Source of the DNA: Bacteroidaceae bacterium
Lineage (GTDB): Bacteria; Bacteroidota; Bacteroidia; Bacteroidales; Barnesiellaceae_A
NCBI GenBank assembly: GCA_017481745.1
Contig: JAFUOV010000005.1
Location: forward strand, 232 to 64,231
Direction: 5' to 3'
DNA length: 64,000 nt
The notes under the pieces were generated by a model. The model was given only the letters and a program-made list of their open reading frames with translations, ran no database searches and was not told the origin of the DNA. Both the position numbers and the translations under genes were made by a program. Below, one piece after another: positions 3,860 to 45,613 of this stretch. Positions within the stretch are counted from its first letter, which is position 1; every line of letters starts with the position of its first letter.

Positions 3860-5329
3860 ATGCGCAAGTTTCTTATTATATATATATGTATATTGTCGGC
3901 TATTGCCACCCTTGCATCGCCCAAGTATGAGATGCGAGCTGTGTGGTTGACGACCAATTGGGGGCTTGATTGGCCCTCGCAACCTGCGCGTAATGCTCGA
4001 GAAGCGGTTCGTCAGCAGGAGGAGTTGCGCCGGCTGCTCGATGAGGTAGAAGCGCTTGGGTTCAATACACTATTCTTTCAGGCGCGTATTCGTGGCGAAG
4101 TTTTTTATAATTCCGAGATAGAGCCTTGGAGTCGTATTGTCAGTGGCAAGCCGGGTGTATCGCCGGGCTATGATCCGTTGGCTTTTGTTGTTGCCGAGTG
4201 TCATCGCCGAGGCTTGGAGTGTCATGCGTGGATGGTGAGTATTCCTGTTGGCAGTGTAAAGCAGGTGAAGCAGCAAGGCGCAAGTGCATTGCCTGCTCGA
4301 CATCCCGAGATGTGTGTAAAGCTGAAGGGCGAGTGGTATCTCAACCCCGGACATCCTGCGGTTGCCGATTATCTGGCTTCTATTGCCGAGGAGATTGCCG
4401 ACAACTATGATGTTGATGGCATCCATCTCGATTATATTCGCTACCCCGATGAGATGGGCGCTTTCCCCGATGCCGATACCTACCAACGCTATGCCCCTGA
4501 AGATATGGCATTGGAAGATTGGCGCGTAGAGAATATTTCGCACATTGTAAGAACGGTGTGCGATGTCGTGAAAGATATTGACGAGGCTATCATGGTGAGT
4601 ACGGCTCCGCTGGGGCGCTATACGATGATAGATGGCATGCCGCCATCCGAATGGTGCTGCACAGGAGGTGCTTCGCAAGACGTTGTGCAATGGATGTTGG
4701 AGGGTTACAACGATTTTGTAGCTCCCATGATGTATTACCGCGATAGTAACTTCTTTCCTTACCTTAATGATTGGGTAGAGCGCACTGACGGCGAGGGCTA
4801 TGTTGTGGCAGGATTGGGTGCCTATCGCATGGAGCGAGGCGAGGGCGATTGGTCGCTCGATGATTTACGACACCAACTGCAAGCAACTCGACATTATGGT
4901 GCTGCAGGGCAGGCCTTCTTCAGGTTACAACATCTGTTGCGTTTCCCCGATTTGGCGCAATTCTTGTCGGGCGATTTTTATCGTTATCGTGCCTTAGTGC
5001 CGCCGATGGTCAAGGTGCATGCACCACTTGCCGCAACACCGCCGGTGGTAGAGCTGAAGAGTGGCTATAGCGGCGATACCCTAGTGTGGCAACCTGTCGA
5101 TGCTGCAGTGCGCTATGCCGTTTATGCTGATGTGTCGGATAGTGTTGATATTGAGGATGTTACCAATCTTGTATATACGTGGGTAACCGATACAACGGTC
5201 GTACTGCCCGCCATGCAATATAGGTCGTTTGCAGTAACGGCTATTGATGCCTATCGCCGAGAGACAGAGCCCTGCTACATAAACGCTCGCAAACTGCCTC
5301 ATTACAATGTTTCTCTATTTTGCAAATAA
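3860..5329 (+). CDS. Glycoside hydrolase-like family 10 (GHL10/DUF187, YngK-like) lipoprotein
   Basis: MRAVWLTTNWGLDWPS opening and TIM-barrel-like motifs (FFQAR, HAWM, GIHLDYIRYP) typical of this family; signal peptide from M at 3860. Confidence 0.7.
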   Translation: MRKFLIIYICILSAIATLASPKYEMRAVWLTTNWGLDWPSQPARNAREAVRQQEELRRLLDEVEALGFNTLFFQARIRGEVFYNSEIEPWSRIVSGKPGVSPGYDPLAFVVAECHRRGLECHAWMVSIPVGSVKQVKQQGASALPARHPEMCVKLKGEWYLNPGHPAVADYLASIAEEIADNYDVDGIHLDYIRYPDEMGAFPDADTYQRYAPEDMALEDWRVENISHIVRTVCDVVKDIDEAIMVSTAPLGRYTMIDGMPPSEWCCTGGASQDVVQWMLEGYNDFVAPMMYYRDSNFFPYLNDWVERTDGEGYVVAGLGAYRMERGEGDWSLDDLRHQLQATRHYGAAGQAFFRLQHLLRFPDLAQFLSGDFYRYRALVPPMVKVHAPLAATPPVVELKSGYSGDTLVWQPVDAAVRYAVYADVSDSVDIEDVTNLVYTWVTDTTVVLPAMQYRSFAVTAIDAYRRETEPCYINARKLPHYNVSLFCK

Positions 5330-5358
5330 TATGTTTGTGCGATTATGGAGTATTTTAT

Positions 5359-5366
5359 TATCTTTG
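5359..5366 (+). promoter_or_regulatory. -7 promoter box TATCTTTG upstream of manA
   Basis: Exact TAnnTTTG match 33 nt upstream of the start codon. Confidence 0.5.
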
Positions 5367-5398
5367 CAGTCGTAGTAGCTAAATGAGAAACACGCACT

Positions 5399-6376
5399 AT
5401 GTATATACTCAAGTTTCAAGATATCTACAAAACACCAATCTGGGGCGGTAGCAAAATAGGCACGTTCAAGGGCAAAACACTCGACTTGAGCTCGGTGGGC
5501 GAGAGTTGGGAGATTTCGGCTGTTGAGGGCGACCTGTCGATTGTTGCCAATGGTGTCGATGCCGGCAAAACGATTGCCGAGCTGATGGCACGCGACGGTG
5601 AACGATTGGTGGGTGCGCATGTGGCTCGATATTTTGGCACAACTTTCCCTTTGTTGGTGAAGTTTATTGATGCACACGACAACTTGTCGATACAGGTGCA
5701 TCCCGACGATAAATTGGCTCGTGAGCGTCATAATGCCTTCGGGAAAACCGAGATGTGGTATGTGATTGATGCCGAGCCGGGAGCAGGCTTGTATTCGGGT
5801 TTTTCAAAGGCGATAACTCCCGAAGAGTATGTTGAGCGTGTCGCCAACAATACCATTATGGACGTTTTGCAGTTTCATCCGGTGCATCCGGGCGATGTCT
5901 TTTATCTGCCGTCGGGTCGTATTCATGCCATTGGCAGCGGTGTGTTCATTGCCGAGATACAGCAGACGTCCAATATAACCTATCGTATTTTTGACTACAA
6001 TCGCGTGGATAAAAGTGGTAATCCGCGAGAGTTGCATACCGAGTTGGCAAAGGATGCAATAGACTATAAAATGTATGACAATCTCAAGATGGAGTATATA
6101 CCTATCAAGAACCAAGCCGTTGAGTTGGTAGATTGTCCCTATTTCACTACCACATTGTTGCAACTCGATATCCCGATGGAGCGCCCCATAGCTCTGTATG
6201 ACTCGTTTATGGTATATGTATGTATGCGAGGTAGTGCCCGCATCACAGCCGACAATGGTACGTGGGTCGATGTCAAGCAAGGCGAAACATGTCTTGTTCC
6301 TGCCGAGATAGGCAGTGTGAAGGTACACCCCAATATGTATACCGAGTTGCTCGAAAGCTACGTGCGTAAAGACTAA
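5399..6376 (+). CDS. manA: Mannose-6-phosphate isomerase, class I
   Basis: PIWGG, LVKFIDA..LSIQVHPDD and KTEMWYV motifs of type I PMI cupins. Confidence 0.85.
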   Translation: MYILKFQDIYKTPIWGGSKIGTFKGKTLDLSSVGESWEISAVEGDLSIVANGVDAGKTIAELMARDGERLVGAHVARYFGTTFPLLVKFIDAHDNLSIQVHPDDKLARERHNAFGKTEMWYVIDAEPGAGLYSGFSKAITPEEYVERVANNTIMDVLQFHPVHPGDVFYLPSGRIHAIGSGVFIAEIQQTSNITYRIFDYNRVDKSGNPRELHTELAKDAIDYKMYDNLKMEYIPIKNQAVELVDCPYFTTTLLQLDIPMERPIALYDSFMVYVCMRGSARITADNGTWVDVKQGETCLVPAEIGSVKVHPNMYTELLESYVRKD

Positions 6377-8966: not shown

Positions 8967-9887
8967 ATGTCGAGATTTGAAGTCAATATATTGGGCTGTG
9001 GTGCAGCAACACCCACCATGCGACACTTGCCTACGGCTCAAGTGGTAAATGTGCGCGATAAGCTGTTTATGGTCGATTGTGGCGAGGGTGCGCAAGTCGC
9101 ATTCCGTCGTGCACACCTCAACTACAACCGGTTGGGGCACATCTTTCTCTCGCACCTGCATGGCGATCATTGCTTTGGTTTGTTTGGCTTGCTTTCTACC
9201 ATGGCACTTACGGGGCATACGGGCGAACTTGTTATTCATGCACACCCCGATGCCGAGGTGCTGTTGCGCCCGATGTTCGACTATTTCTGCCGCGAAAATC
9301 CCTTCGATATACGCTTCAATGCGCTGTCGCCGTCGTCGAGCGAGGTTGTATATAGCGACCGCAGCGTCAGTGTGCGCACCATTCCGCTCAAACATCGCAT
9401 ACCTACTTGCGGTTTCCTCTTTGAAGAGGCGGTTGGCGATCGACACTTGCGTGGCGATATGGTCGAGTTTTATAATATTCCCACCTATATGCGCGCCGCT
9501 ATCAAGCAAGGTGCCGACTTTGCGACGCCCGACGGCAAGGTCGTTCCCAACTCGCAACTCACATTGCCACCTACGCCGCCGGCTCGATATGCCTATTGTA
9601 GCGATACGATGTATAGCGAGGGCATTATCCCCTACATCGAGGGTGTCGACTTGTTGTATCACGAAGCAACCTATGCCGATGATGCCGAGGCTATGGCACG
9701 CACTACATACCACTCTACGGCACGTCAGGCTGCCCGTATTGCAGCCAAGGCTCACGTGGGTCGTCTGCTTTTGGGACACTTCTCGGCGCGATACAACGAT
9801 GAAAAGATACTCTTACAGCAAGCCCTTGAGGAGTTTGCTCATACCGAGCTTGCCCATGAGAATATGAATGTCGTTTTGCGACGATAG
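8967..9887 (+). CDS. rnz: Ribonuclease Z
   Basis: MBL motif HLHGDH, N-terminal ILGCGAATP, typical 306-aa RNase Z layout. Confidence 0.9.
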   Translation: MSRFEVNILGCGAATPTMRHLPTAQVVNVRDKLFMVDCGEGAQVAFRRAHLNYNRLGHIFLSHLHGDHCFGLFGLLSTMALTGHTGELVIHAHPDAEVLLRPMFDYFCRENPFDIRFNALSPSSSEVVYSDRSVSVRTIPLKHRIPTCGFLFEEAVGDRHLRGDMVEFYNIPTYMRAAIKQGADFATPDGKVVPNSQLTLPPTPPARYAYCSDTMYSEGIIPYIEGVDLLYHEATYADDAEAMARTTYHSTARQAARIAAKAHVGRLLLGHFSARYNDEKILLQQALEEFAHTELAHENMNVVLRR

Positions 9888-10071: not shown

Positions 10072-10272
10072 ATGAATGTAGATGTTATCGGTTCTTGGGC
10101 TGGTCTCGTATGGGAAGCCTTGAACGCATCTGGTATGCTTACAGTAAAAGGTTTGAAGAAAGCTACCAAACTCAAAGAGAAAGAACTTTACGCAGCTCTC
10201 GGCTGGCTTGCTCGTGAGGGCAAAGTTTGTATTACTGAGACAGAAAGTGATGTTGAGGTTGTATTGTGTTAA
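10072..10272 (+). CDS. Small winged-helix protein (DUF2582-like)
   Basis: 66-aa ORF, IGSWAGLVWEAL...LGWLAREGKV pattern as in small wHTH proteins. The start is chosen downstream of the promoter box; ATG at 10048 is also possible. Confidence 0.5.
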   Translation: MNVDVIGSWAGLVWEALNASGMLTVKGLKKATKLKEKELYAALGWLAREGKVCITETESDVEVVLC

Positions 10273-10301
10273 TTAACGCAACACAATAAAACTTATACGA
10301 T

Positions 10302-10340
10302 AGAGGGTGTGTCCACATGGACACACCCTCTTTGTTTGTT
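10302..10340 (+). terminator. Intrinsic terminator after the wHTH gene
   Basis: Near-perfect palindrome AGAGGGTGTGTCC..GGACACACCCTCT followed by TTGTTTGTT. Confidence 0.75.
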
Positions 10341-10382
10341 GAAAGGTGAGAAGTAGGGACGTGCAGCTGGTGCGTGGTGAAT

Positions 10383-10643
10383 GTTGAGAGATGAGAGTTT
10401 AGTGTTTAGAGATTATAGACATAAGAACAAAAGAACGGGCGTTGAGAGATGTGAGCGTATGCACAAACCCCTCAGTCGCAGGGCGACAGCTCCCCTATAT
10501 TTTTCTGTCGAAAGACACAGAGGAGCAAAATATTACCATACAGCAAGAGTAACCTTTTCTGCCCCTGCGAGTGAAACGAGATAGGGGAAGTGCCCAAAGG
10601 GCGTAGGGGTTTTATGAATGTTTAGAGTTTAGAGTTTAGAGAG
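10383..10643 (+). repeat. Repeat-family copy A: heptad array + TAAGAACA..GTTGAGAG module + ~150-nt core + heptad array
   Basis: By-eye alignment to the copies at 15801-16060 and 16061-16260; lies in the convergent intergenic region between the wHTH and MBL genes. Confidence 0.85.
10465..10612 (+). ncRNA. Candidate structured RNA core (copy A) of the repeat family
   Basis: Closing helix AAACCCCT/AGGGGTTT encloses hairpins GTCGC-AGG-GCGAC, GCTCC..GGAGC, TTAC..GTAA, CCCCT..AGGGG and GCCC-AAA-GGGC. The strand of any transcript is unknown. Confidence 0.3.
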
Positions 10644-10661
10644 GGACAAGTTTTTGCGTTT

Positions 10662-11468
10662 TTACTTCTCGAAGGTGTATAGTGCCGAGGGGTGGTTGCG
10701 TGCCAACGTAACGAGTTGCACGTCCTTACCTACGCGGATGCCTTCGTTGTAGAGGCGACCTTCGATGGTCTTGTATGCAAGTTGCGGATGGTTGTTGTCG
10801 AGGCTCAAATGGCACAAGAAGATGTGTGTCAATTCGGGACGGTAGGTTGTTGCCAGGAACTCGGCGGTCTCGGCATTGTCCATGTGTCCGCGAGGGGCTA
10901 CAATGCGGCGTTTCAGGTGCAGCGGGTAAGGACCGTTTTGCAACATCGTGGCATCGTAGTTTGCCTCAATAACCAGATAGTTTGCCTCCGAGAGGTAGCG
11001 TGCAGCCGTCTCGGTAATGTGTCCCAAGTCGGTGGCGAGCACAAAGGTATGTTCGCCATAGCGTATGCGGTAGCCCACATTGTCGCTGCCGTCGTGAGGT
11101 ACTTCAAAGGCTGTTATCTCAAAGTCGCGTATCATAAAGGGCACTTCCTTCACAATCTCGCGGTGTGCGCTGTATATCTTGTCGGGCATGCAGTAGTTGC
11201 GGTTCATGCCATTGAGTATGCTCTGTGTGGTGTATACCGGTATGCCCAATTTCTCGCCCAAGTTACCCGCAGCCTTTATGTGGTCGGCGTGGTCGTGGGT
11301 GATGCACAGCGCAACAATCTTTTCAAAGGGGATGTTGTTGTCTTTAAGAGCCTTTTTGATGGTGCGTACACCTATTCCGGCATCTATCAAGATTCCATAT
11401 TCTTCTGTTCCCAAGTAGCAACAGTTGCCGCTGCTACCACTTGCCAGGCTCATATATTGTAGTTGCAT
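10662..11468 (-). CDS. MBL-fold metallo-hydrolase
   Basis: HDHADH metal-binding motif, 268 aa, YycJ-like layout. Confidence 0.8.
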   Translation of the reverse strand: MQLQYMSLASGSSGNCCYLGTEEYGILIDAGIGVRTIKKALKDNNIPFEKIVALCITHDHADHIKAAGNLGEKLGIPVYTTQSILNGMNRNYCMPDKIYSAHREIVKEVPFMIRDFEITAFEVPHDGSDNVGYRIRYGEHTFVLATDLGHITETAARYLSEANYLVIEANYDATMLQNGPYPLHLKRRIVAPRGHMDNAETAEFLATTYRPELTHIFLCHLSLDNNHPQLAYKTIEGRLYNEGIRVGKDVQLVTLARNHPSALYTFEK

Positions 11469-11527
11469 TGCTTTTTATTTTTTAAGATTACAAAGTTACA
11501 ACAATCGCGCCAATATCTAAAGTCTTT

Positions 11528-11672
11528 TGAGTGTTTTTATGTATTTAGTGTTTAGTGTTTAGTGTTTAGAGTTTAGATAGTAACCTTTTCTGCCCCTGCG
11601 AGTGGAACGAGATAGGGGAAGTCCACGAAGTGGGAAGGGGTTTTATGAAAGTTTAGAGATTAGTGTTTAGAG
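11528..11672 (+). repeat. Repeat-family partial copy: heptad array + 3' half of the core + heptads
   Basis: 11580-11644 matches the core 3' half (TAACCTTTTCTGCCCCTGCGAGTGGAACGAGATAGGGGAAGTCCACGAAGTGGGAAGGGGTTTT). Confidence 0.85.
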
Positions 11673-11710
11673 TTAAAAAGCCCCATAGGGCGAAAAGGAC
11701 GGCGAATGTC

Positions 11711-11779
11711 AAGAGATTAGGACTGAGGGGTTTGTGCGTGTGCTCTAAACTCTAACCCCTAATCTCTCAACTCTCACCC
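11711..11779 (-). repeat. Repeat-family partial copy in inverted orientation (heptads + core 5' end)
   Basis: The reverse complement reads GAGAGTTGAGAGATTAGGGGTTAGAGTTTAGAGCACACGCACAAACCCCTCAGTC. Confidence 0.75.
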
Positions 11780-11794
11780 GTTTCTATATAATAA

Positions 11795-11828
11795 GTGAGG
11801 TATGCCACTTGCTGGTGGCATACCTCAC
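11795..11828 (-). terminator. Hairpin terminator downstream of the T9SS cargo gene
   Basis: 14-bp perfect stem GTGAGGTATGCCAC/GTGGCATACCTCAC, 42 nt after the stop codon; only a weak U-tract on the minus strand. Confidence 0.55.
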
Positions 11829-11869
11829 TCGGCCGACTGTAAATTATATATACTTTTGTTGAGTGCTTG

Positions 11870-14800
11870 TTAGCGAACAACCTTGCTTACGTTGTCGTTG
11901 CAACGTACGATGTAAACGCCTCCGTTCATGCCGTTGAGGTCTACTTCGTTCTCGCCACGAGCTACTACTGCACCGCTCATGTTGTACACTACGATAGTGC
12001 CTTCGGCTGTTACGATGCCGTTCTTGTATGCTATACCATTTTCGACTGTTACACCTTCAATACCTGTGCCTATTGAAGTATCGGGAGCAAGTGTTACTGT
12101 GAAGCTAAACTCGGGGCTTACACGCTCGGCAAGACCTTTTGCTGCAAAAGTTACGGCTCCTTGTTCGAATGTAATAGTGTAAGTTTCACCGGTAGTGAGG
12201 CATCCGTCCCAACTGTTTACACCGAACGATACTGTACCACCACTGATGCCTTTGTTCAACACTTGACGTTCGCCTTCGATGTGAACACCGTTGTAGTGCA
12301 TCCACCAAGTCTCGGGAGTGATTATCACTTTCGAAGCATCAAAGTCAGATACTTTCTCGAAGAAAGTAACAGTCATAGTTTCGGTTTGAGTCTTTTCTGC
12401 AACTGTGAGGTATGTACCATCGGCAGGCGATGTGCTTTCGTAAGGAAGTACATAGAGTGAGTTGTAATCGGGGCGAACTTCTACCTTATATACACCTGCA
12501 CCTGCCACTTTAAATTGGTTGTTTATGGGATTCGATGCGAAACTATAATCAAGACCTTGGAGTGCGAAGTGCTCGGCTACCTTGCCGTCTTCACGAGCAA
12601 CGAATGCGGGGTGCAATGCCGACTCGGTGGTGGGGAACAAGAAACCTTCATCGGCACTTACAAAGTTTACAACGGCAGTGTAAACAGCCTCGCCGTTTTC
12701 GCCGGTAGTAGGCTCAAGTGCACCACGACCGTCCACGCCATACTCTGTTGCGTTACCTGCTATGAAGATGTATTCGAATGTTTCTTCTTCAACAGGATAG
12801 AATGTAACTTTCATATTGACAAGGTCTATAACGGCTTTTACTTTTACGCGAGTTTCACCCTCTACGGCTGCTCCATCGTAAGTTTCCATACCGTCGAAGC
12901 CATTAGAGTGGAAGAGGCGTTTGCTGGTATCATCCCAGGAGAATGAGAGGTTGTAAGCCTCTTCATAGTTGATATCTGTTGTAGCTACATCGGGGATGAG
13001 GTGACCACCGTTGGCAAAACCACTACCCAAGAGGAATTTGAAACGAGAGTTGTCTGCACCGTCGCCATTGTCGTCGTAGAGATAACCGGTCCATGTATAT
13101 GTACCTGATGCCAAGTCAACATCGCAACCTTGGATGGTCGATACACCCCAACCTGTTGAGCCGCCACCTACATCGCTGGCTTCATATTTCTCAACTACGG
13201 CACTACCGGCAATGTAAACGTCGGCAGGAAGTACACGCACTGTATTGAGTGCGCGATTTACCTCTATAGTAACATTAATAGGATTGCCGTTGGGAGTAGT
13301 GAATGTTTTGGCATCGTTGCTCGATGTCGATTTCATACCGTAGGTTTTACCTATCTCTATTTGCAAGTCGTTGTCGCTGTTGGCACCATATTGACCGTTG
13401 TCGCTTTCTTTGTAAAGACGGAATTTGAAGCCACCTTTGAGAGGTCCGGTATAAGTGTAGATGTTACCATCGGTTGAGGTCATTGCCAAGCACTCATTCC
13501 AGTTGTCATTTGTACCTGTTACGAAGTAGAATCCGGCCTCTTCTTCAACGGGCTTTGTAGGAGTAGTAGTGTTACCATCTGCATCGTAAGTCGTATTGTC
13601 TTTCCAAGTCAAGTCTGTGGTTTGACTGCCATTATTACCATTGTTGAAGATAAGACCTGCACCGTTTAGATCGCTTGTAGTAGTGTATGCCCAAGTGGTG
13701 TCATTTATTTCTTTTGCTGTGCTACCGGGCCATTCGCCCAAGTATTTTTCGTCGGTCTCTAAGTTCCAAGCATATACACTTACTGTATCCCAATTCTTGC
13801 TATTGGTAAAGTACACAGTGTGGTTGTTTGTTGTGTCGATAGGATCTGTTTTTCCGTTGTCATCGTATGTAGCACCGTTTTCGAGTGCGAGGTCGCCGGT
13901 TTGGGTATTATTACCTTCGTTGAAAATCACCATAGGCGTAACAAGTACATCGGTAGTAGTGAATGAAATTTCCCAAACACCGTTGTTATAAGTCATTGCA
14001 GAACCGGGCCATTCGCCAAGATATTTTTTGCTGTCATTGCCTTGGTCCCAAACGTATGCGTGAACTTTGGTTTTACCACCGATGTAGTAGAAAGTCCAAG
14101 TAATTTCCTCGGGGGCTGCTGTTACTGTAACAGTAGCAGTCTTGGTTTCGGCAGCGCCGGCAAGAGTTGCTGTAATTTCGTATGTGCCTACTGCACCGGG
14201 AGTCCAAGGCGAAGTGATTTTGTTGCCGTCGATGGTATATTCAACATCGGCTGCATCGGCATTCTCAACCTCGCAAGTGAAAGTAACCTCCTCACCAAGT
14301 ACGATTGTTGAGGGCTCGGCCGTGAAAGTTACGATTGCGGGAACAGGTACTGCATTAACAATTACAGTAGCTGTTTTGCTTTCTGCACCTTCGAGTGAAG
14401 CAGTGATGGTGTATGTACCTACAGCAGCAGGTGTCCAAGGCGAAGTTATAACTTCGTCGTTTACTGTGTAAACGACATTCTCGGTAGTATTTTCAGTTGT
14501 AGAAGTCAAAGTAACCGACTCGCCAAGAGTAATTTCGGCAGGCTCGGCTGTGAAAGAAGTGATAGCAGGAACGGGAACTGCATTAACAGTTACAGTAGCT
14601 GTTTTGCTTTCTGCACCTTCGAGTGAAGCAGTGATGGTATATGTACCTACAGCAGCAGGTGTCCAAGGCGAAGTGATAACCTCTTCGTTAACAGTATAAA
14701 CTACTTCATTAGTAGTGTTTTCAGTTGTAGAAGTCAAAGTAACCGACTCGCCAAGTACGATTGTTGAGGGCTCGGCTGTGAAAGTAAGAATAGCAGGAGT

Positions 14801-15526
14801 TGCAACAACTACTTCCGAGAACTTAGCAGTAAGTTTTACATCGGCGTGAGGTGCTGTGTAAGTGTAAGTTGTGGCTGTAGATACTAGGTTGCCTTCAGCA
14901 TCGTACCAACCCAAGAACTCTGCGCCGTCATCGGGGGTAGCTGTACAAGTAACAGTAGCAGTATAAGCAGCATCGGCAGAAGTTGTACCCGAAGAGGCTG
15001 TAGCAGTGCTTGCGGCAGTCAACTTATAAGTTGAAATAGCAGTTGTACCCTCACCCTCGATGGTGATGTTTTGAGCGTGGTTAAGGGCTGTGTAACTATT
15101 TGAACTGTTTCCGATATAATTAATATCGATGTTAGCATTTTTATTTGCATTTTCTTTGGTTACCAAATAATATGATCCGGAATCAAAGCGGTAGTCACCG
15201 TAAGTATTGGTATAATATTGAGCATTGGTGCGATTGCCAGAACTCCAATTGCCACTACCCCAAGATCCAGTTGTACCAATGACACAAAAATAATTTGCAC
15301 CACCCCAAGAAATTTGTTTGTAGTGATATAAATTTGTACCTGCAATCTTTTTCATTTCGAAAAGACTTGTGTAACTGTTGTGACCTACGCAAGCATATAC
15401 GTATTTGTACTCAGGAATATCTGTACCATCAAAATAGATATCTCCTCCTGAGTGGTCAACTGCCATTGCGTTGAAGTTAGCGCATAGCAATAATGCACTA
15501 ACAAGAGTTAATAAGATTTTTCTCAT
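11870..15526 (-). CDS. T9SS-secreted multi-domain surface protein: Listeria-Bacteroides repeat, 3 Ig-like repeats, 2 CBM25/26-like starch-binding-type modules, further beta-rich FKF-motif modules, T9SS C-terminal sorting domain
   Basis: Signal peptide from MRKILLTLVS (ATG 15526); FLGWYDAEGNLV motif; three 76-aa repeats; two Y.W....KYLGEWPG...IFN.GNN.QT.DL modules; C-terminal VYNMSGAVVARG..LNGMNGGVYIVR..KVVR. No catalytic domain recognised. Confidence 0.8.
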   Translation of the reverse strand: MRKILLTLVSALLLCANFNAMAVDHSGGDIYFDGTDIPEYKYVYACVGHNSYTSLFEMKKIAGTNLYHYKQISWGGANYFCVIGTTGSWGSGNWSSGNRTNAQYYTNTYGDYRFDSGSYYLVTKENANKNANIDINYIGNSSNSYTALNHAQNITIEGEGTTAISTYKLTAASTATASSGTTSADAAYTATVTCTATPDDGAEFLGWYDAEGNLVSTATTYTYTAPHADVKLTAKFSEVVVATPAILTFTAEPSTIVLGESVTLTSTTENTTNEVVYTVNEEVITSPWTPAAVGTYTITASLEGAESKTATVTVNAVPVPAITSFTAEPAEITLGESVTLTSTTENTTENVVYTVNDEVITSPWTPAAVGTYTITASLEGAESKTATVIVNAVPVPAIVTFTAEPSTIVLGEEVTFTCEVENADAADVEYTIDGNKITSPWTPGAVGTYEITATLAGAAETKTATVTVTAAPEEITWTFYYIGGKTKVHAYVWDQGNDSKKYLGEWPGSAMTYNNGVWEISFTTTDVLVTPMVIFNEGNNTQTGDLALENGATYDDNGKTDPIDTTNNHTVYFTNSKNWDTVSVYAWNLETDEKYLGEWPGSTAKEINDTTWAYTTTSDLNGAGLIFNNGNNGSQTTDLTWKDNTTYDADGNTTTPTKPVEEEAGFYFVTGTNDNWNECLAMTSTDGNIYTYTGPLKGGFKFRLYKESDNGQYGANSDNDLQIEIGKTYGMKSTSSNDAKTFTTPNGNPINVTIEVNRALNTVRVLPADVYIAGSAVVEKYEASDVGGGSTGWGVSTIQGCDVDLASGTYTWTGYLYDDNGDGADNSRFKFLLGSGFANGGHLIPDVATTDINYEEAYNLSFSWDDTSKRLFHSNGFDGMETYDGAAVEGETRVKVKAVIDLVNMKVTFYPVEEETFEYIFIAGNATEYGVDGRGALEPTTGENGEAVYTAVVNFVSADEGFLFPTTESALHPAFVAREDGKVAEHFALQGLDYSFASNPINNQFKVAGAGVYKVEVRPDYNSLYVLPYESTSPADGTYLTVAEKTQTETMTVTFFEKVSDFDASKVIITPETWWMHYNGVHIEGERQVLNKGISGGTVSFGVNSWDGCLTTGETYTITFEQGAVTFAAKGLAERVSPEFSFTVTLAPDTSIGTGIEGVTVENGIAYKNGIVTAEGTIVVYNMSGAVVARGENEVDLNGMNGGVYIVRCNDNVSKVVR
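14117..14800 (-). repeat. Intragenic tandem repeat, 3 x 228 bp (76-aa Ig-like units)
   Basis: CTGCATTAACA..GTGTCCAAGGCGAAGT blocks recur with a 228-nt offset (14351 vs 14579). Two units are near-identical and the third is diverged. Confidence 0.9.
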
Positions 15527-15624
15527 TTTTTTGTGTTTTATGTTTTTAGATTTAATATTCGGCTTCTTTATATTGTTGTCTTTCAGTGGTTTGTTTGTAT
15601 CACTTTCGGCGTAATAATTGCCTG

Positions 15625-15632
15625 CAAAATTA
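15625..15632 (-). promoter_or_regulatory. -7 promoter box TAATTTTG for the T9SS cargo gene
   Basis: Plus strand CAAAATTA is TAATTTTG on the minus strand, about 100 nt upstream of ATG 15526. Confidence 0.5.
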
Positions 15633-15685
15633 AACAAACACATTGTTAATATTGAGAAAAATATATTTTTAAACAAAAATTAACC

Positions 15686-15699
15686 CGCAAACGTTTGCG
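15686..15699. promoter_or_regulatory. 14-bp perfect palindrome CGCAAACGTTTGCG, LacI/PurR-type operator-like
   Basis: Perfect dyad with a CG centre, matching the generic LacI-family half-site pattern (..AAACG|CGTTT..); lies 54 nt upstream of the -7 box. Confidence 0.4.
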
Positions 15700-15865
15700 C
15701 CATGGGCGTAGCAGGGGGTAGACCTAAGAACAGGTGTTGAGAGATTTAAAGACACATGAACATTAGAACAAAAAAATAGTGAGCGTAGGGGTTCATGAAA
15801 GATGAGAGTTTAGTGTTTAGAGTTTAGAGACCTAAGAACAGGCGTTGAGAGGTGTGAGCATACGC

Positions 15866-16015
15866 AAAACCCTTCAGTCGCAGGGCGACAGCTCCCCTAT
15901 ATTTTTCTGTCGAAAAACACAGAGGAGCAAAATATTACCATAACAGCAAGGTAACCTTTTCTGCCCCTGCGAGTGAAACGAGATAGGGGAAGTCCACGAA
16001 GTGGGAAGGGGTTTT
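15866..16015 (+). ncRNA. Candidate structured RNA core (array unit 1)
   Basis: P1 15866-15874/16007-16015; hairpins at 15877-15889, 15891-15928, 15935-15954, 15964-15989 and 15994-16004. Confidence 0.3.
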
Positions 16016-16066
16016 ATGAAAGATGAGAGTTTAGTGTTTAGAGTTTAGAGTTTAGTGTGTATGTAC

Positions 16067-16216
16067 AAAACCCCTCAGTCGCAGGGCGACAGCTCCCCTG
16101 TATTTTCCTCTCGGAAAACACAGAGGAGCAAAATATTACCATAACAGCAGGGTAACCTTTTCTGCCCCTGCGAGTGAAACGAGATAGGGGAAGTCCACGA
16201 AGTGGGAAGGGGTTTT
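16067..16216 (+). ncRNA. Candidate structured RNA core (array unit 2)
   Basis: Same architecture; P1 AAAACCCCT/AGGGGTTTT is a perfect 9 bp. Confidence 0.3.
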
Positions 16217-16334
16217 ATGAAAGTTTAGGGTTTAGAGTTTAGTGTTTAGTGTTTAGAGTGTATACGCAAAACCCCTCAACACCTTTTTGTTCTTATGTTC
16301 TTGTGCCTATGAATCTTTCGCCACACCCCACTCT

Positions 16335-17564
16335 CTACGCTTTTTTCTCTAATTTCTTGCGGAGGATGTGTGCGGGGTAGCCGGCGGTGAGGGCGCCAAG
16401 GAGTAGTACGATAGCTGTAACGATGAGGGTGTCGCTCCACTCGATGCGTACGGGGTAGGCTTCGACGATGAAAGTATTGGCTTCGCCGTTACCCAGTTGC
16501 AGCAAGCCGAACTCTTGTTGCAGCCAGCATAGCAATGTGCCTACTACGAGTCCCGATAGAGCGCCTATCATAGAGATGAGCCAGCCCTCGGTCATGAAGA
16601 TGCGGGTGATGAGCCGGTCGTCGGCACCGAGCTTGCGCAGGGTGGCGATGTCGTCTTGCTTGTCGACGATGAGCATCGAGAGCGAGCCGACAATGTTGAA
16701 TGTGGCTATAAGCAGTATAAAGGCGAGGATAAGGAAGGTAATCCACTTTTCTATCTGTATCCAGCGGTACGACTCGCCGTTCTGCATGAGGCGGTCTTGG
16801 ATGATGTAGCCGTCGCCCAATCGTTGTTGCAGGCGGTCTATTACCTTGTGTGTCGATGCGCCCGGTGTGGTGCACAGCTCTATGCTTGTTGCCTCGGTGG
16901 GGTAGTCGAAGAGGGTGCGTGCATCGTCGAGGGGGATGTATATGACGTTGTCGTCGTATTGTGTCTGGTTGGTGTAGAACGTAGCCGACACGAAAAAACG
17001 TTGCGAGGTGAACGAGCCGGCGGGATTGGCAAGGTTGACACGACGGTTGCGTTGTGGGGCATATAGTTCGATGGGGCGGGCAAAGTTGGCACCGGCTTCG
17101 AGTTTAGCCCCCACGCCTATGCCTATGATGGCATACGACACAATCTCGTCTTGCAGCAGATATTCGCCATTGTATAGGGTACGGTCGAGGGCTATGCCTT
17201 GGTTGTAATCGAGGGGTATGCCCTTCACGACGACCGGCATCTGGCGTTGGTACACAGCCAAGGCTGTCTCTTCGATGACGGGGGTAAGGTATGCCACGTC
17301 GTCCCACGCAGCTATTTCGTCCCATGCCTCTATTGTGCCGTCGATGGTCTTGCCCTCGGCAGGAAGTATCTTTATCTCGGGCTGTATGTCGGATAGCAGC
17401 GAGTCGATGAGGCTCGAGAAGCCGTTATATACCGACAGTGTGCATATAAGTGCAGCCGTAATGAGTGCCACTCCGCACACCGATATAATAGATATGATGT
17501 TGATGGCAGAGTGCGATTTCTTGGAGAAAAGATACCTTGATGCTATGCGCAGGGCGAGAGACAT
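16335..17564 (-). CDS. ABC transporter permease, FtsX/LolE-like
   Basis: 409 aa, N-terminal TM helix, large periplasmic loop, C-terminal FtsX-type 3-TM bundle (DIATLRKLGA motif). Confidence 0.8.
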   Translation of the reverse strand: MSLALRIASRYLFSKKSHSAINIISIISVCGVALITAALICTLSVYNGFSSLIDSLLSDIQPEIKILPAEGKTIDGTIEAWDEIAAWDDVAYLTPVIEETALAVYQRQMPVVVKGIPLDYNQGIALDRTLYNGEYLLQDEIVSYAIIGIGVGAKLEAGANFARPIELYAPQRNRRVNLANPAGSFTSQRFFVSATFYTNQTQYDDNVIYIPLDDARTLFDYPTEATSIELCTTPGASTHKVIDRLQQRLGDGYIIQDRLMQNGESYRWIQIEKWITFLILAFILLIATFNIVGSLSMLIVDKQDDIATLRKLGADDRLITRIFMTEGWLISMIGALSGLVVGTLLCWLQQEFGLLQLGNGEANTFIVEAYPVRIEWSDTLIVTAIVLLLGALTAGYPAHILRKKLEKKA

Positions 17565-22016: not shown

Positions 22017-24446
22017 ATGAATTGGAAAGCAAATGTAAAGAAGGCTTTGCCTTATGTGTTGTCAGTCGTATTTTTTGCGGTTGTGTCGTACCTCTATTTT
22101 GCACCCGAGATTTTCGAGGGCAAGATACTGTTTCAACACGATACACAGCAGGGTATAGCCATCGGTCAGGAGGCAAAGGCGTTTAAAGAGGCTACCGGCG
22201 AGACAACTCGCTGGACCAATACTACCTTCTCGGGTATGCCCACGTTCCAGATTGCGCCTTCGTATGCCAATTATCCCATTATCCGACACATCGAGCATGC
22301 CTATAGCTTGTGGATGACAAGTCCCGCTTCGCTCGTTTTCATTATGTTGGTGGGCTTCTTTATCTTTATGCTTTCCATGGGTTGTAAGTGGCACTATGCG
22401 GTGCTGGGCGCTATTGCCTACGCCTTTTCGTCCTACTTCTTTATCATCATTCAGGCAGGACACATCTGGAAGTTTGTAACCCTTGCATACATACCGCCTA
22501 CATTGGCAGGTATCGTGTGGGCATACCGCGGTCGCTACCTCTTGGGTGGCGGTGTGGCAGCACTCTTTGCCATGTTGCAGATTGCATCCAACCACATACA
22601 GATGTCGTATTACTTCCTCTTCGTTATCGTTGCTATGGTTGTAGCGTATGCCGTCGAACTGATACGCGAGAAGAAAACTGCTCAATTCCTCAAGGCGAGT
22701 GGTGTGCTCGTGGTGGCTGCGGCGCTTGCCATAGGTGCCAACTTACCCTCGCTATATCACACACAGAAGTATAGCAAGGAGACCATGCGTGGCGGACACT
22801 CGGAGCTTACTGCCACTACCGGTGGCGCTGCTGCCGAGTCTCAAAGCGGATTGAGCAAGGATTATATTACCCAATGGAGCTATGGCAAGATGGAGACTGT
22901 CTCGCTGCTTATTCCCAACATTAAGGGTGGCGCATCGGGTATGTTGTCGAGCCACGAGAAGGCTGTCGAGGCTGCATCGTCGTCGGTACGACCCTATCTG
23001 TCGCAAGTCAACAGCTATTGGGGCGACCAACCCGGCACTTCGGGTCCTGTGTATGTGGGTGCTATCATCTGCATGCTGTTTGTAATGGGATGCATCACCA
23101 TCAAGTCGCCCATGAAGTGGGCTTTGATAGCTGCCACAATCCTCTCGATACTCCTCTCTTGGGGCAAGAATTTTATGCCGCTTACCGATTGGTTTATCGA
23201 CTATTTCCCCATGTATAACAAGTTCCGTACGGTGTCGAGTATCTTGGTTGTTGCCGAGTTCTGCATCCCTGTGTTGGCTATCATGGCATTGAAACAATTC
23301 TTTGAAAGCCCCGACAAGAAGCAACTCAAGGCAATGTTTGTTGCCACCGGCATCACTGCCGGCATTGCACTCTTGGCGTATGTTGCACCCGGATTGTTCG
23401 GCTCGTTCACCAGCTGTTACGAGAACGATATGATAGCACAAAACGCTCAGTTGCGCCCGCTCTTCGACGATATTGCCGAGGCACGCCAAGCAGTGTTCAG
23501 TGCCGATGCCTTGCGCACATTATTATATATAGCTGCGGCTGCCCTCGTCATGTACCTCGTGGGCTCAGGTCGCTTCAAGAAACAATGGGCTTTGTTGTTG
23601 CTCGGCGTGTTGCTCATTGCCGATATGGGTACGGTGAACAAGCGCTACCTCAATGGCGACTCGTTTGTCGAAAATCGTCGCAAGAGCGATCCTTTCCCCA
23701 TGACACAAGTCGACAAGTATATCCTGCAAGACCCCGATCCCAACTATCGCGTGTTTAATCTTGCAGCCGGCGACCCCTTCAGCGATGCCCGCACGTCATA
23801 CTATCACAAGTCGGTAGGTGGCTATCATGCTGCCAAGTTGGCTCGTTATCAAGACCTTATCAACCGTCAACTCTCGCGCATGAGTGAGCCTGTGCTCAAT
23901 ATGCTCAATACCAAGTACTTCATCGTACCCTTGCAAGATGGCAATGTTACCGTACAGCAGAACCCCGATGCCATGGGCAATGCGTGGTTTGTCGACGAGG
24001 TGCAATGGGTAGATAATGCCGATGCCGAGATGGCTGCACTCGACACCTTCGACCCCGCTCGCACAGCCGTTGTCGACCGCCGATTTGCCGAGTTGATAGA
24101 TGATACCGCCGTTGCGGCAGCCGAGGGCGATACTATACACCTCACTTCATATTGCCCCAACGAGTTGCGCTACATAAGCCATGCCGCCAACGACCGCATT
24201 GCCGTATTCTCCGAGATATACTTCCCATGGGGCTGGCACGTTACCATCGACAGTGCACCCGTCAAAGAGGCTCGCGCCAACTACGTCTTGCGTGCGCTCA
24301 ACATCCCCGCCGGCACACACGAAATAGTATTCCGCTTCGAACCCACATCCATTGCCACTACCGAGCATATCGCCTTTGCCTCTATGGCAGGCATCCTACT
24401 CATGCTCCTCGCCGCCATCTTCGTGCGATGCAGGTTGAAAGGTTAG
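22017..24446 (+). CDS. YfhO-family large polytopic membrane protein (putative glycosyl-transfer/lipid-linked glycan function)
   Basis: About 12 or more TM helices in the N-terminal two thirds, soluble C-terminal domain, then a final TM helix. ATG 22017 is chosen because the tracked start at 21942 lies inside the upstream terminator. Confidence 0.6.
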   Translation: MNWKANVKKALPYVLSVVFFAVVSYLYFAPEIFEGKILFQHDTQQGIAIGQEAKAFKEATGETTRWTNTTFSGMPTFQIAPSYANYPIIRHIEHAYSLWMTSPASLVFIMLVGFFIFMLSMGCKWHYAVLGAIAYAFSSYFFIIIQAGHIWKFVTLAYIPPTLAGIVWAYRGRYLLGGGVAALFAMLQIASNHIQMSYYFLFVIVAMVVAYAVELIREKKTAQFLKASGVLVVAAALAIGANLPSLYHTQKYSKETMRGGHSELTATTGGAAAESQSGLSKDYITQWSYGKMETVSLLIPNIKGGASGMLSSHEKAVEAASSSVRPYLSQVNSYWGDQPGTSGPVYVGAIICMLFVMGCITIKSPMKWALIAATILSILLSWGKNFMPLTDWFIDYFPMYNKFRTVSSILVVAEFCIPVLAIMALKQFFESPDKKQLKAMFVATGITAGIALLAYVAPGLFGSFTSCYENDMIAQNAQLRPLFDDIAEARQAVFSADALRTLLYIAAAALVMYLVGSGRFKKQWALLLLGVLLIADMGTVNKRYLNGDSFVENRRKSDPFPMTQVDKYILQDPDPNYRVFNLAAGDPFSDARTSYYHKSVGGYHAAKLARYQDLINRQLSRMSEPVLNMLNTKYFIVPLQDGNVTVQQNPDAMGNAWFVDEVQWVDNADAEMAALDTFDPARTAVVDRRFAELIDDTAVAAAEGDTIHLTSYCPNELRYISHAANDRIAVFSEIYFPWGWHVTIDSAPVKEARANYVLRALNIPAGTHEIVFRFEPTSIATTEHIAFASMAGILLMLLAAIFVRCRLKG

Positions 24447-24500
24447 AGATGAGGGTTTAGAGTGTAGTGTTTAGTGTTTAGAGACATAAGAACAAAAGAA
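24441..24500 (+). repeat. Heptad array + TAAGAACA module relic abutting the yfhO-like stop codon
   Basis: GGTTAGAGATGAGGGTTTAGAGTGTAGTGTTTAGTGTTTAGAGACATAAGAACAAAAGAA; the TAG stop at 24444-24446 lies in the first heptad. Confidence 0.8.
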
Positions 24501-43257: not shown

Positions 43258-45582
43258 GTGGAAAAATCCCTTTTACAAAATCTCAATTCGGCGCAACGCG
43301 ATGCTGTTCTCTATACCGACGGACCTCAGTTGGTCATTGCCGGCGCAGGTTCGGGAAAGACTCGCGTGCTCACCTATAAGATTGCATATCTGCTCTCGCA
43401 AGGCTATGAGCCGTGGCGTATATTGGCACTTACATTCACAATTAAGGCTGCCAACGAAATGAAAGAGCGTATTGCTCGGTTGGTGGGACGTGAGGTGGCT
43501 GCCCGGTTGTGGATGGGAACATTCCACTCTATCTTCTCTCGCATACTGCATGCCAATGCCGAGCGCTTGAATTTCCGTAGCGATTTCACTATATACGACA
43601 CTGCCGACTCACGCTCGCTGCTCAAAACCATTATCAAGGAGATGCAGCTCGACGACAAGATATACAAGCCGGCAACCGTTCAGAGCATCATATCGAATGC
43701 CAAGAATGCACTTATTACCCCATCATTGTATAGCACCAATGCCGAGTTGCTCGAGATGGACCGCAAGCAGAAGCGCCCTATGATGCACAACATCTATCGT
43801 ACCTATTGGGAGCGATGCTTCCGTGCCGGAGCAATGGACTTTGACGACTTGTTGCTCTATACCAATATACTCTTTCGCGACCACCCCGATGTGGCGCAGA
43901 AATACCGCGATTTGTTCCGTTATGTCTTGGTTGACGAGTATCAAGATACCAACTTCTCGCAGCATCTTATTGTCAATCAATTGTGCCGCGAACATGGTCG
44001 ATTGTGCGTGGTGGGTGATGATGCACAGAGCATCTACTCGTTTCGTGGTGCCAATATAGGCAATATACTCAATCTTAAAAACGAGTATAAGGGCTTGCAA
44101 ATCAATAAGCTGGAACAGAATTATCGCTCGACGCAGAACATTGTCGATGCTGCCAATAGCCTCATCAGCAAGAACAAAGAGCAAATACGCAAGCGCGTAT
44201 TCTCCGAGAAAGAGCGTGGTAGCAAAGTGGCAGTATTTGCCTCATATTCCGATTTTGAAGAGGGCTATCTTGTTGCCAATCGTATCAAGGAGATGCACTT
44301 GCTCAACAGTACGCCGTACAACGATTTTGCCATACTCTACCGCACCAACGCACAGTCGCGTGTGCTTGAGGAGGCATTGCGCAAGCGCAATATGCCCTAT
44401 CGTATCTATGGTGGTCTTTCGTTCTATCAACGCAAAGAGATTAAAGATGCTGTGGCATATATGCGCCTTACCATCAATCCCAATGACGAGGAGGCTTTCA
44501 AGCGTGTTGTCAACTATCCGGCGCGAGGTATTGGCGAGACTACCGTTGGCAAGATACTTGCTTGTGCGCAGCTGCACAACGTAGGGGTGTGGAGCGTATT
44601 GTCCGATCCTACCGAGTACAACCTGCAAATAAATTCGGGTACTCGCACCAAGCTTGCCGCCTTCCGCGATTTGATACAGGGCTTCAGCGATAGTGCCGGC
44701 GAGAAGTCTATATACGATTTGGTCGAGCATATCTTGCAGCGCTCGGGCATCATTGCCGATATATACACATCCGATACACCCGAAAATATAAGCCGACAAG
44801 AAAATATACAGGAGTTGCTCGGTGGTGTGATGGAGTTCTATTCTTTGCGTCAGGAGGAAGGAAACGAGGCTGTTACGCTATCCGACTTTCTCGCCGAGAT
44901 TTCTCTCATTACCGACCAAGACAAGGGCGATGAGCAAGACGACGATAAAGTAACGCTCATGACCATACACTCGGCAAAGGGATTGGAGTTTCGCAATGTC
45001 TTTATTACCGGTCTTGAAGAAGACCTCTTTCCCTCGGCAATGTGTGTAGAGAGTCTGCAGCAAATCGAGGAGGAGCGCCGGCTGCTATATGTAGCCATCA
45101 CGCGTGCGCAAGAAAATTGCATCCTAACCTATGCGCACACACGCTTCCGCAATGGCAAGACCAATACTTGTCGCCCCAGCCGTTTCCTGAAAGACCTCGA
45201 TACGCAATATGTCAATATGCCCGACGAAGCGCCGGTATCGACCACCAAGTCGCCCTATGCCGATGCACCTTGGCGTAGCCAATATACATCGTTCGAGCGC
45301 AGTTTCAAAGCTCCGACAAAGCCATCGACCCTCAAACCTATCGAAAATTCGCGCCGCATTGTTACCGCCGAGCAGCCTGTCGCCCCGACTCAGCAACGCG
45401 ATAGTGTAATGTCGGGTGCCGGTACGTTGCGTGTGAGTGCGCGTATCCGTCATGAACGCTTCGGATTGGGTACGGTCGAGGCAATAGAAGGCGTGGGCGA
45501 CAACTGCAAGATAAGTGTTGCCTTCGACAACGTAGGTCGCAAGCAACTACTACTGAAATTTGCCAAATTTACAATCCTCTAA
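43258..45582 (+). CDS. ATP-dependent DNA helicase, UvrD/PcrA/Rep family
   Basis: SF1 motifs AGAGSGKT, VDEYQDTN, TIHSAKGLEF, YVAITRA; GTG start. Confidence 0.9.
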   Translation: MEKSLLQNLNSAQRDAVLYTDGPQLVIAGAGSGKTRVLTYKIAYLLSQGYEPWRILALTFTIKAANEMKERIARLVGREVAARLWMGTFHSIFSRILHANAERLNFRSDFTIYDTADSRSLLKTIIKEMQLDDKIYKPATVQSIISNAKNALITPSLYSTNAELLEMDRKQKRPMMHNIYRTYWERCFRAGAMDFDDLLLYTNILFRDHPDVAQKYRDLFRYVLVDEYQDTNFSQHLIVNQLCREHGRLCVVGDDAQSIYSFRGANIGNILNLKNEYKGLQINKLEQNYRSTQNIVDAANSLISKNKEQIRKRVFSEKERGSKVAVFASYSDFEEGYLVANRIKEMHLLNSTPYNDFAILYRTNAQSRVLEEALRKRNMPYRIYGGLSFYQRKEIKDAVAYMRLTINPNDEEAFKRVVNYPARGIGETTVGKILACAQLHNVGVWSVLSDPTEYNLQINSGTRTKLAAFRDLIQGFSDSAGEKSIYDLVEHILQRSGIIADIYTSDTPENISRQENIQELLGGVMEFYSLRQEEGNEAVTLSDFLAEISLITDQDKGDEQDDDKVTLMTIHSAKGLEFRNVFITGLEEDLFPSAMCVESLQQIEEERRLLYVAITRAQENCILTYAHTRFRNGKTNTCRPSRFLKDLDTQYVNMPDEAPVSTTKSPYADAPWRSQYTSFERSFKAPTKPSTLKPIENSRRIVTAEQPVAPTQQRDSVMSGAGTLRVSARIRHERFGLGTVEAIEGVGDNCKISVAFDNVGRKQLLLKFAKFTIL

Positions 45583-45613
45583 ACACTCAACTTTAAACAC
45601 TCAACACTCAACA
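45577..45613 (-). repeat. Heptad array (TTGAGTG/TTTAGAG type, inverted) filling the whole uvrD-like/nspC intergenic spacer
   Basis: CTCTAAA CACTCAA CTTTAAA CACTCAA CACTCAA; the uvrD-like TAA stop lies in the first heptad. Confidence 0.7.

Follow-up and report, generated by a model that had tools for sequence, protein, structure and literature searches.

A composite hairpin repeat of an uncultured Bacteroidaceae lineage is probably assembled from REP/BoxC-like DNA modules that recur beside DUF559 nuclease genes

Introduction

We analyzed a core of ~150 nt that recurs within a 64,000-nucleotide stretch of an uncultured Bacteroidaceae genome (contig JAFUOV010000005.1; "the window" denotes this whole stretch) and conclude that it is probably a composite, non-autonomous form of a REP/BoxC-like DNA repeat that is built from modules. 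The modules form a cross-phylum family with covarying hairpins, occur in every arrangement, and are gained and lost at the strain level. A subfamily of solo DUF559 nucleases (Vsr-like PD-(D/E)xK) is encoded in the linker of a divergent module pair, in the order M'-gene-M, and this nuclease may be what spreads the repeat. What the window holds would then be an ordinary orphan repeat and not a new RNA gene.

REP/BIME- or BoxC-like repeats have been described before, and those of the BoxC/PIT type were first noted in the 1990s. BoxC, PIT, and TMECO are one and the same element, which is intergenic, strand-unbiased, often paired in inverted orientation, found at rearranged loci, and able to form an intrastrand purine-motif triplex in vitro (PMC4666352). 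TMECO has been reported in Proteobacteria only, with no protein partner, function, or mobile partner proposed (PMC4666352). The DUF559 association appears new: in the searchable literature, itself incomplete, we found no description of the module family, of its P1-in-loop architecture, or of the association. Concept searches for the module family in Bacteroides or Clostridia returned no description either, sequence-string searches gave chance matches, and the searchable papers that mention DUF559 contain, by their titles and abstract openings, nothing on repeats.

Results

Three full copies of the core lie on the + strand of the window, at 10465-10612, 15866-16013, and 16067-16214, the second and third being units 1 and 2 of a 201-nt tandem pair. 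An earlier note on this DNA had listed the copies, their coordinates, and the stems of the ~150-nt core, all of which we found as claimed. Copy 1 begins with a module M (10465-10526) that comprises a C tail (AAACCCCT, 10465-10472), hairpin P1 (GTCGC-AGG-GCGAC, 10475-10487), and hairpin P2 (GCTCC...GGAGC, 10489-10526). A spacer hairpin, P3 (TTACC/(A)GTAA, 10533-10552), pairs over 4 bp with a C.A mismatch here and over the full 5 bp in the remaining copies. The copy ends in an inverted, diverged module M' (10558-10612) made up of P4 (CCCCT...AGGGG, 10562-10587), P5 (GCCC-AAA-GGGC, 10592-10602), and a G tail forming the 3' strand (AGGGGTTT, 10605-10612). The swap that had been pointed out in P5 is real, the hairpin reading CCAC-GAA-GTGG at 15994, at 16195, and in a half copy at 11623, as is the C-to-T change in the tail of copy 2, which gives a G.U pair in the closing helix. 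Copy 3 carries a compensatory U-A to C-G change in inner P2.

The half copy (11580-11644, +) is an inverted M' alone, with P4, P5, and G tail. Two + strand fragments complete the set: an orphan C tail (AAAACCCCTCA, 16264-16278), which starts a further unit and diverges into another repeat module, and an orphan G-tail fragment (GGACTGAGGGGTTTG, 11720-11734), the remnant of another module. A tail match at 27391 lies inside coding sequence and was rejected as chance. The relaxed structural descriptor used below recovers every M and M' of the window, at a cost of one false match in the 64 kb. As in MITEs, the element's two ends carry terminal inverted repeats, AAAACCCCT and AGGGGTTTT. In the same region, a DUF2582 gene is flanked by two MBL-fold hydrolase genes (8967-9887, +; 10662-11468, -). 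Both proteins have precomputed Pfam matches to Anti-Pycsar Apyc1, unmarked for the 306-aa protein (E up to 1e-5) and weak for the 268-aa protein, and one cluster member is named phosphoribosyl 1,2-cyclic phosphodiesterase.

The conserved unit is module M, ~45-65 nt long, which combines the C-rich tail AACCCCTC[A/C], a hairpin P1 whose base is GTC...GAC and whose interior is free, and the pyrimidine/purine hairpin P2 ([G/C]CTCCCC-loop-GGGGAG[C/G]). Reverse-complemented, the 3' half of the core in the window reads AAAACCCCTTC-CCAC-TTC-GTGG-ACTTCCCCTAT..., a diverged M. The 148-nt core thus resolves into M, a spacer hairpin, and an inverted M', and its closing helix is therefore formed by the two inverted tails. 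BLAST of one unit returned no matches against plasmids and three weak partial matches against phages, which revealed divergent relatives that agree with the unit in its 5' part only. This part was turned into a search pattern, AACCCCTCMGTC-N5-11-GACASCTCCCCTA, which matched 20 IMG/VR contigs and at least 120 stretches in bacterial genomes sampled at one genome per species, and a second pattern matched at least 120 further gut-metagenome stretches. A metagenome scan anchored on the window-specific 3' half gave zero matches.

The species matches among those listed are mostly Clostridia MAGs, accompanied by many Bacteroidia (Muribaculaceae, Barnesiella, Alistipes, Paludibacteraceae, Bacteroidaceae, Ca. 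Limisoma, Aphodosoma) and by phage-like contigs. Megasphaera, Bifidobacteriaceae, Verrucomicrobiaceae, Kiritimatiellae, Victivallales, Ca. Nomurabacteria, and Limnohabitans are each represented by a single contig among the matches listed; part of the taxon assignments is based on short MAG contigs, and some of these single-contig labels may be mis-binned. Neighboring strict-pattern modules no more than 600 nt apart are convergent, or closed, in 28 cases among the matches listed, divergent in 31 (most with tails 4-24 nt apart), and tandem in 46, including 47-49-nt arrays in phage contigs. Closure is thus a feature of just one arrangement among several. The 5-way junction is not supported as the unit of selection, the two-hairpin module occurring also alone, in direct tandem, and in divergent pairs. 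Inverted doublets and alternating arrays in extragenic space, as known for REP/BIME elements, are both present. In a Barnesiella MAG (L087, 3361-3552), an inverted module is nested in another composite, with several partial copies within 1 kb; from this nesting, it appears that elements integrate into one another or recombine among themselves.

ORF clustering across about 260 pattern-fetched loci among the matches listed yielded no transposase family and one small family of nuclease genes, DUF559 (Pfam PF04480, E 1e-27 to 1e-30). The DUF559 gene adjoins modules in loci L028, L102, L114, L132, L148, and L214, all ascertained by the pattern. It starts 12-37 nt past the G tail of an M' in L028, L102, and L114 and likewise shortly after one in L132, where the start position is approximate; in the same four loci, a module starts at or shortly past the stop codon. 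L148 and the Bacteroides loci L158, L214, L253, and L270 share this layout with longer spacers.

Two further sets of loci were ascertained by the nuclease. A DUF559 profile provided 45 IMG/VR loci (108 kb). The descriptor gave 17 matches there, of which 8 are located upstream of the gene at a distance of 5-106 nt (binomial p about 1e-6). All eight upstream modules point their G tail towards the gene, and all belong to the 19 closest homologues. More distant DUF559 homologues in phage contigs have no modules, and the link is limited to one subfamily. The second set comprised eight solo DUF559 genes picked only by diversity and contig extent, from Bacteroidota, Weeksellaceae, Chitinophagaceae, Muribaculaceae, Nitrospirota, a Tara marine scaffold, and two unlabelled contigs. 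Each of the eight has modules within about 130 nt and lies between an inverted pair of them, as in the pattern-ascertained loci. Neither a DUF559 gene nor a transposase was found in the 64-kb window. A single profile search returned at least 7,989 DUF559 proteins (E up to 1e-10). A structure has been solved for just one relative, 3HRL, annotated "endonuclease-like protein." On a 6.5-Mb contig (L320, 501-875), a solo DUF559 gene lies between hsdR and hsdM of a type I restriction-modification operon, with modules downstream.

We also considered RAYT as the partner, using an approximate IS200 TnpA sequence as the query. No cognate RAYT flanked by modules was found in the about 260 loci listed or in the window. 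The one IS200-like ORF in those loci (L076) is frameshifted, has its own distinct REPs, and was judged coincidental. That locus, from a Kiritimatiellae MAG, places the Y1 pseudogene about 150 nt from a module, followed by REP-like hairpins (GTAGCCACGGG...; about 5200-5850, + coordinates).

Folding was examined on both strands. Every window copy folds better than all 200 of its dinucleotide shuffles, with z between -3.4 and -4.7 for the + strand and between -4.3 and -5.7 for the - strand. For nine copies from three genera (the window lineage, the Barnesiella MAG L087, and a goat-colon Bacteroidaceae MAG, L113), RNAalifold predicts a closed multi-hairpin junction on either strand, at -45.2 kcal/mol (+) and -57.3 kcal/mol (-). 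Of the five hairpins, P3 appears in the prediction for the - strand only. Double changes across the nine copies occur in P5 (CG6/GC3 and CG4/AU4/UA1), inner P2 (UA5/CG3), and P1 (GC7/AU1). The closing helix is an invariant AACCCCT/AGGGGTT, with no covariation at the adjoining positions. Since this pair of tails varies solely by one G.U, the closing helix supplies no covariation evidence.

A broader test used alignment A5, which holds 60 diverse Bacteroidia-type modules under a named P1 plus P2 structure; the modules were collected by exact patterns, which fixes some of its columns. Paired cells amount to 82.4%, compared with 76.2% after shuffling (0 of 500 shuffles reach the observed value) and 42-60% in slid controls. 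The covariation score is 0.144, compared with 0.067 (again 0 of 500) and 0.016-0.051, respectively. P1 pair 14-24 is distributed as AU33/CG18/GC5/UA1 and the P2 closing pair as CG51/GC7, and inner P2 exchanges whole stems (TTTTGC/GCAAAA, CGCAC/GTGCG, GGC/GCC, CTCGGC/GCCGAG). Half-changed stems are common as well, with a P1 T.C pair in 21 of the 60 modules. Constraint at the level of the hairpin is well supported by these data; constraint at the level of the junction is not supported. The earlier note had regarded pairing that outlasts sequence divergence as a signature of selection that would not be expected of a neutral repeat. Hairpin pairing does persist, across the 60 modules and relative to shuffles, but covariation is usual in REP-like repeats and so does not set the core apart from an ordinary repeat family.

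The mismatches in P2 differ between strands. The C-tail strand has 146 A.C or C.A mismatch cells and 18 G.T cells, and at the one mismatch pair left free by the search pattern, C.A occurs 30 times and C-G 29 times. These same positions are G.T (or G.U) wobbles on the G-tail strand, which consequently folds mismatch-free. An inverted pair places one such module on each strand; therefore, no single transcript is favored, in agreement with the absence of orientation bias described below. We infer that each module folds as single-stranded DNA on the G-rich strand, and RNA folding inside read-through transcripts is possible. A few modules (L245 and row 18 of A5) carry P2 flipped (CTGTGTTTTGC...GCAAAATATAG), so that it is the C-tail strand that bears the G.T wobbles, as though an in-place inversion of the hairpin had occurred.

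The module also contains three blocks in which one purine block mirrors another: the G tail GAGGGG mirrors the P2 purine arm GGGGAG. The tail changes along with the arm from lineage to lineage: other pairings of purine arm and G tail are GGAGGGG with GGGGTGG, GGGGAGAG with GAGAGGGG, and AGAGGGA with GAGGGAG. Mirror matches of at least 6 nt number 57, compared with 34.8 in shuffles (maximum 49), although this excess is confounded by lineage. The tail base beside P1 covaries with the P2 closing pair, the two combining as C with C-G (123), A with G-C (82), or otherwise (13); these states form two lineages, and the covariation may be phylogenetic. In the window itself, the purine arm is AGAGGAG, which fits the C tail imperfectly as a triplex partner. 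Judged by this geometry, a G tail that mirrors the purine arm could form a BoxC-type intrastrand triplex.

Strain variation was assessed on nine orthologous contigs; proteins at least 90% identical to those of the window come from MAGs named "Bacteroidaceae bacterium." The copy adjoining the MBL gene is present in all strains compared. The tandem pair is absent from L002, L003, and L005, and its site is also empty in L009; the half copy is absent from all four, and L004 has different units. In L006 (5650-6000, corresponding to window 11468-16334), the 3.8-kb gene of a CBM26/Flg_new_2 surface protein is missing and one hybrid copy is left; in the window, this gene is bordered by the half copy at one end and by full copies at the other. 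The comparison suggests a deletion or insertion via recombination between element copies. The "empty" alleles keep tail remnants such as GTAGGGGTTTTGCG, so the repeats seem to have changed by recombining with one another and by slippage, and not by clean transposition. Neither a clean empty site nor a target-site duplication was found at the three polymorphic sites, whose boundaries lie inside other repeats. The CBM26/Flg_new_2 gene itself (11870-15676, - strand) contains 228-nt tandem repeats (14154-14798; 2.3 copies, 83% identity), which presumably encode repeated protein domains.

The linkers beside every window element are filled by tandem heptamers (GTTTAGA/GTTTAGT). An array of (GTTTAGA)n occupies the linker 3' of copy 1 (10620-10641), where strains differ by 7-nt steps, and (TTTAGTG)n lies directly 5' of the half copy (11536-11576). 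Further arrays are found directly 3' of the half copy (11650-11674), at 11743-11774, 5' of copy 2 (15805-15829), in the linker of copies 2 and 3 (16026-16055), and 3' of copy 3 (16223-16256); those at 24441-24481 and 45579-45613 have no core. Other genomes have heptamers of their own beside modules (ATTCGGC, CATTCCT, TTATCTN, GTTGAGN, TAAGTAA, AATAATT). Period-7 arrays lie within 80 nt of a tail in 6 of 33 cases, compared with an expectation of 3.9% (p about 0.002); arrays of period 5, 6, or 8 never do, and those of period 9 do in 2 of 37. The linker heptamers could be repair scars of staggered cuts.

Discussion

We infer a selfish nuclease-plus-repeat element. In the proposed mechanism, modules would fold as single-stranded DNA on the G-tail strand, as a hairpin with or without the triplex, and the DUF559 nuclease would recognize either this fold or the palindromic tail junction and nick there. 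Nicking would in turn drive copying or recombination, in the manner of RAYT on REPs or of a free-standing homing endonuclease. The window copies would be orphans, acted on in trans or decaying, that now evolve by recombination and slippage. A wider proposal, which we put forward tentatively and hold with less confidence than the composite nature of the core, is that the solo DUF559 subfamily and the tail-plus-two-hairpin module constitute an unrecognized cross-phylum selfish element. E. coli BoxC/PIT motifs and the 148-nt window composites would be its non-autonomous derivatives or its targets, and recognition would proceed via the folded G-strand hairpin or triplex with its G.T wobbles. Alternatively, the adjacency could mean that the nuclease gene homes into the repeats and does not spread them.

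The main competing reading assigns the element a cis-acting RNA role: as part of read-through transcripts, co-transcribed copies would serve mRNAs as a 3'-end stabilizer, a processing site, or an attenuator. Such roles have been reported for some REP, ERIC, and BOX elements, and we regard this reading as unlikely here, though worth weighing. All four window copies, in + orientation, are antisense within a run of - strand genes, and the transcript would carry the - strand, which has the lower alifold energy and a 17-bp P2 with G.U. Modules also favor convergent gene ends: by crude ORF calls, 79 of the 378 unique-context modules among the matches listed lie between convergent genes and 32 between divergent genes. 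The same calls, however, reveal no strand preference between co-directional genes, where 67 of 128 modules are on the gene strand and 61 on the opposite one. Moreover, inverted pairs leave one mismatched hairpin on either transcript, the copies are dispensable between closely related strains, and no terminator signal was seen.

Less probable still is a decaying or neutral palindromic repeat, with no protein partner, whose arms are kept complementary by templated repair or gene conversion. Indels arising from recombination between repeated pieces, 7-nt slippage, and the frequent half-changed stems all speak for it. It accounts poorly for one architecture retained across phyla with many different P1 and P2 stems, and for the non-random placement of modules around DUF559 genes.

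The leading idea of the earlier note, an independent small-RNA gene or array producing a ~150-nt RNA with a 5-way junction, is very improbable: a stable closed fold with compensatory changes and a 3' half nearly identical in the window lineage, the Barnesiella MAG, and the second (goat-colon) Bacteroidaceae MAG speak for it, but orientation is inconsistent, the junction is one arrangement among several, half and nested copies exist, and strains differ in copy presence. A discrete RNA is not supported. At the gathering threshold, Rfam matches only tRNAs in the window, and at E up to 10 it gives chance-level matches across 10200-16500. Scans for sigma-70-type promoter and intrinsic-terminator consensus sequences at the window copies remain at chance level, with no excess. 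Lacking both an Rfam match and a promoter or terminator signal, the core is unlikely to be an RNA gene, and a stand-alone sRNA is unlikely. The window does contain three tandem, near-identical tRNA genes (121-423; anticodon TAC, Val; 108-120 nt spacing).

The interpretation that we favor, a modular REP/BoxC-like DNA repeat, can be placed beside several described systems. Like REP/BIME/REPIN elements with their RAYTs in E. coli and Pseudomonas, the modules are short, high-copy, extragenic hairpin repeats that occur singly, as inverted doublets, and in alternating arrays, favor gene 3' ends, vary between strains, and can enclose a small nuclease-type gene between two inverted repeats. They differ from REPs, which are imperfect palindromes of 20-40 nt behind a conserved tetranucleotide, in having no GTAG-like 5' tetranucleotide, the 5' part being AACCCCTC[A/C] followed by two hairpins, and in that the flanked gene encodes a PD-(D/E)xK DUF559 protein and not an HUH Y1 transposase. 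With pneumococcal BOX and other bacterial MITEs (ERIC, Correia), they share modular units (A-Bn-C), end modules that close a multi-hairpin fold, intergenic tandem arrays, and frequent co-transcription. Sequence similarity to these elements is absent, the module family spans phyla, and neither a target-site duplication nor a parent insertion sequence was seen. Homing endonucleases of the I-Bth0305I family (PMC3239194) likewise pair a small Vsr-like nuclease gene with a specific DNA site. The candidate site for DUF559, as judged from sequence, is the palindromic junction between two tails, and the putative target is a dispersed repeat instead of a conserved gene.

In geometry, the module resembles TMECO: each joins a pyrimidine arm and a purine arm to a third, G-rich block mirroring the latter. 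Like TMECO, the module is intergenic, shows no strand bias, often comes in inverted pairs, and is tied to local rearrangement. The second loop, which is 3 nt in TMECO, is replaced here by the covarying hairpin P1 of 13-22 nt. With its loop limit of 1-6 nt, the published search (Holder et al. 2015, PMC4666352) would therefore miss the module. The TMECO pattern CCCTCNCCC-N3-6-GGGNGAGGG-N3-GGGNGAGGG is unmatched here, the module stems being 6-8 nt and of other sequence.

If the DUF559 link holds, it offers a testable function for this domain, proposes a protein partner for BoxC/PIT-type triplex repeats, and adds a second nuclease-plus-repeat system to RAYT-REP. Gut Clostridia, Bacteroidia, and their phages carry the family in abundance. 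It creates strain-level indels that include the loss of the 3.8-kb surface-protein gene, and its modules probably seed assembly breaks in metagenomes as well as spurious ORFs, an example being a 392-aa ORF call in L188 that continues through a module.

In E. coli, ycjD is the sole DUF559 gene so named in the annotation, and a TMECO/BoxC motif (CCCTCGCCCC-TCT-GGGGAGAGGG-TTA-GGGTGAGGGG) lies about 190 nt downstream of it. A comparison of ycjD presence and absence in E. coli was set aside, as it is confounded by the eef locus upstream of fabI in UPEC 536. At the 3' end of ycjD in E. coli K-12 (L319, 4300-4420), a stretch of about 60 nt encoding the C-terminus is repeated just past the stop codon, and a CCCTCTCCC motif contains the current stop, which points to an earlier rearrangement of this gene end.
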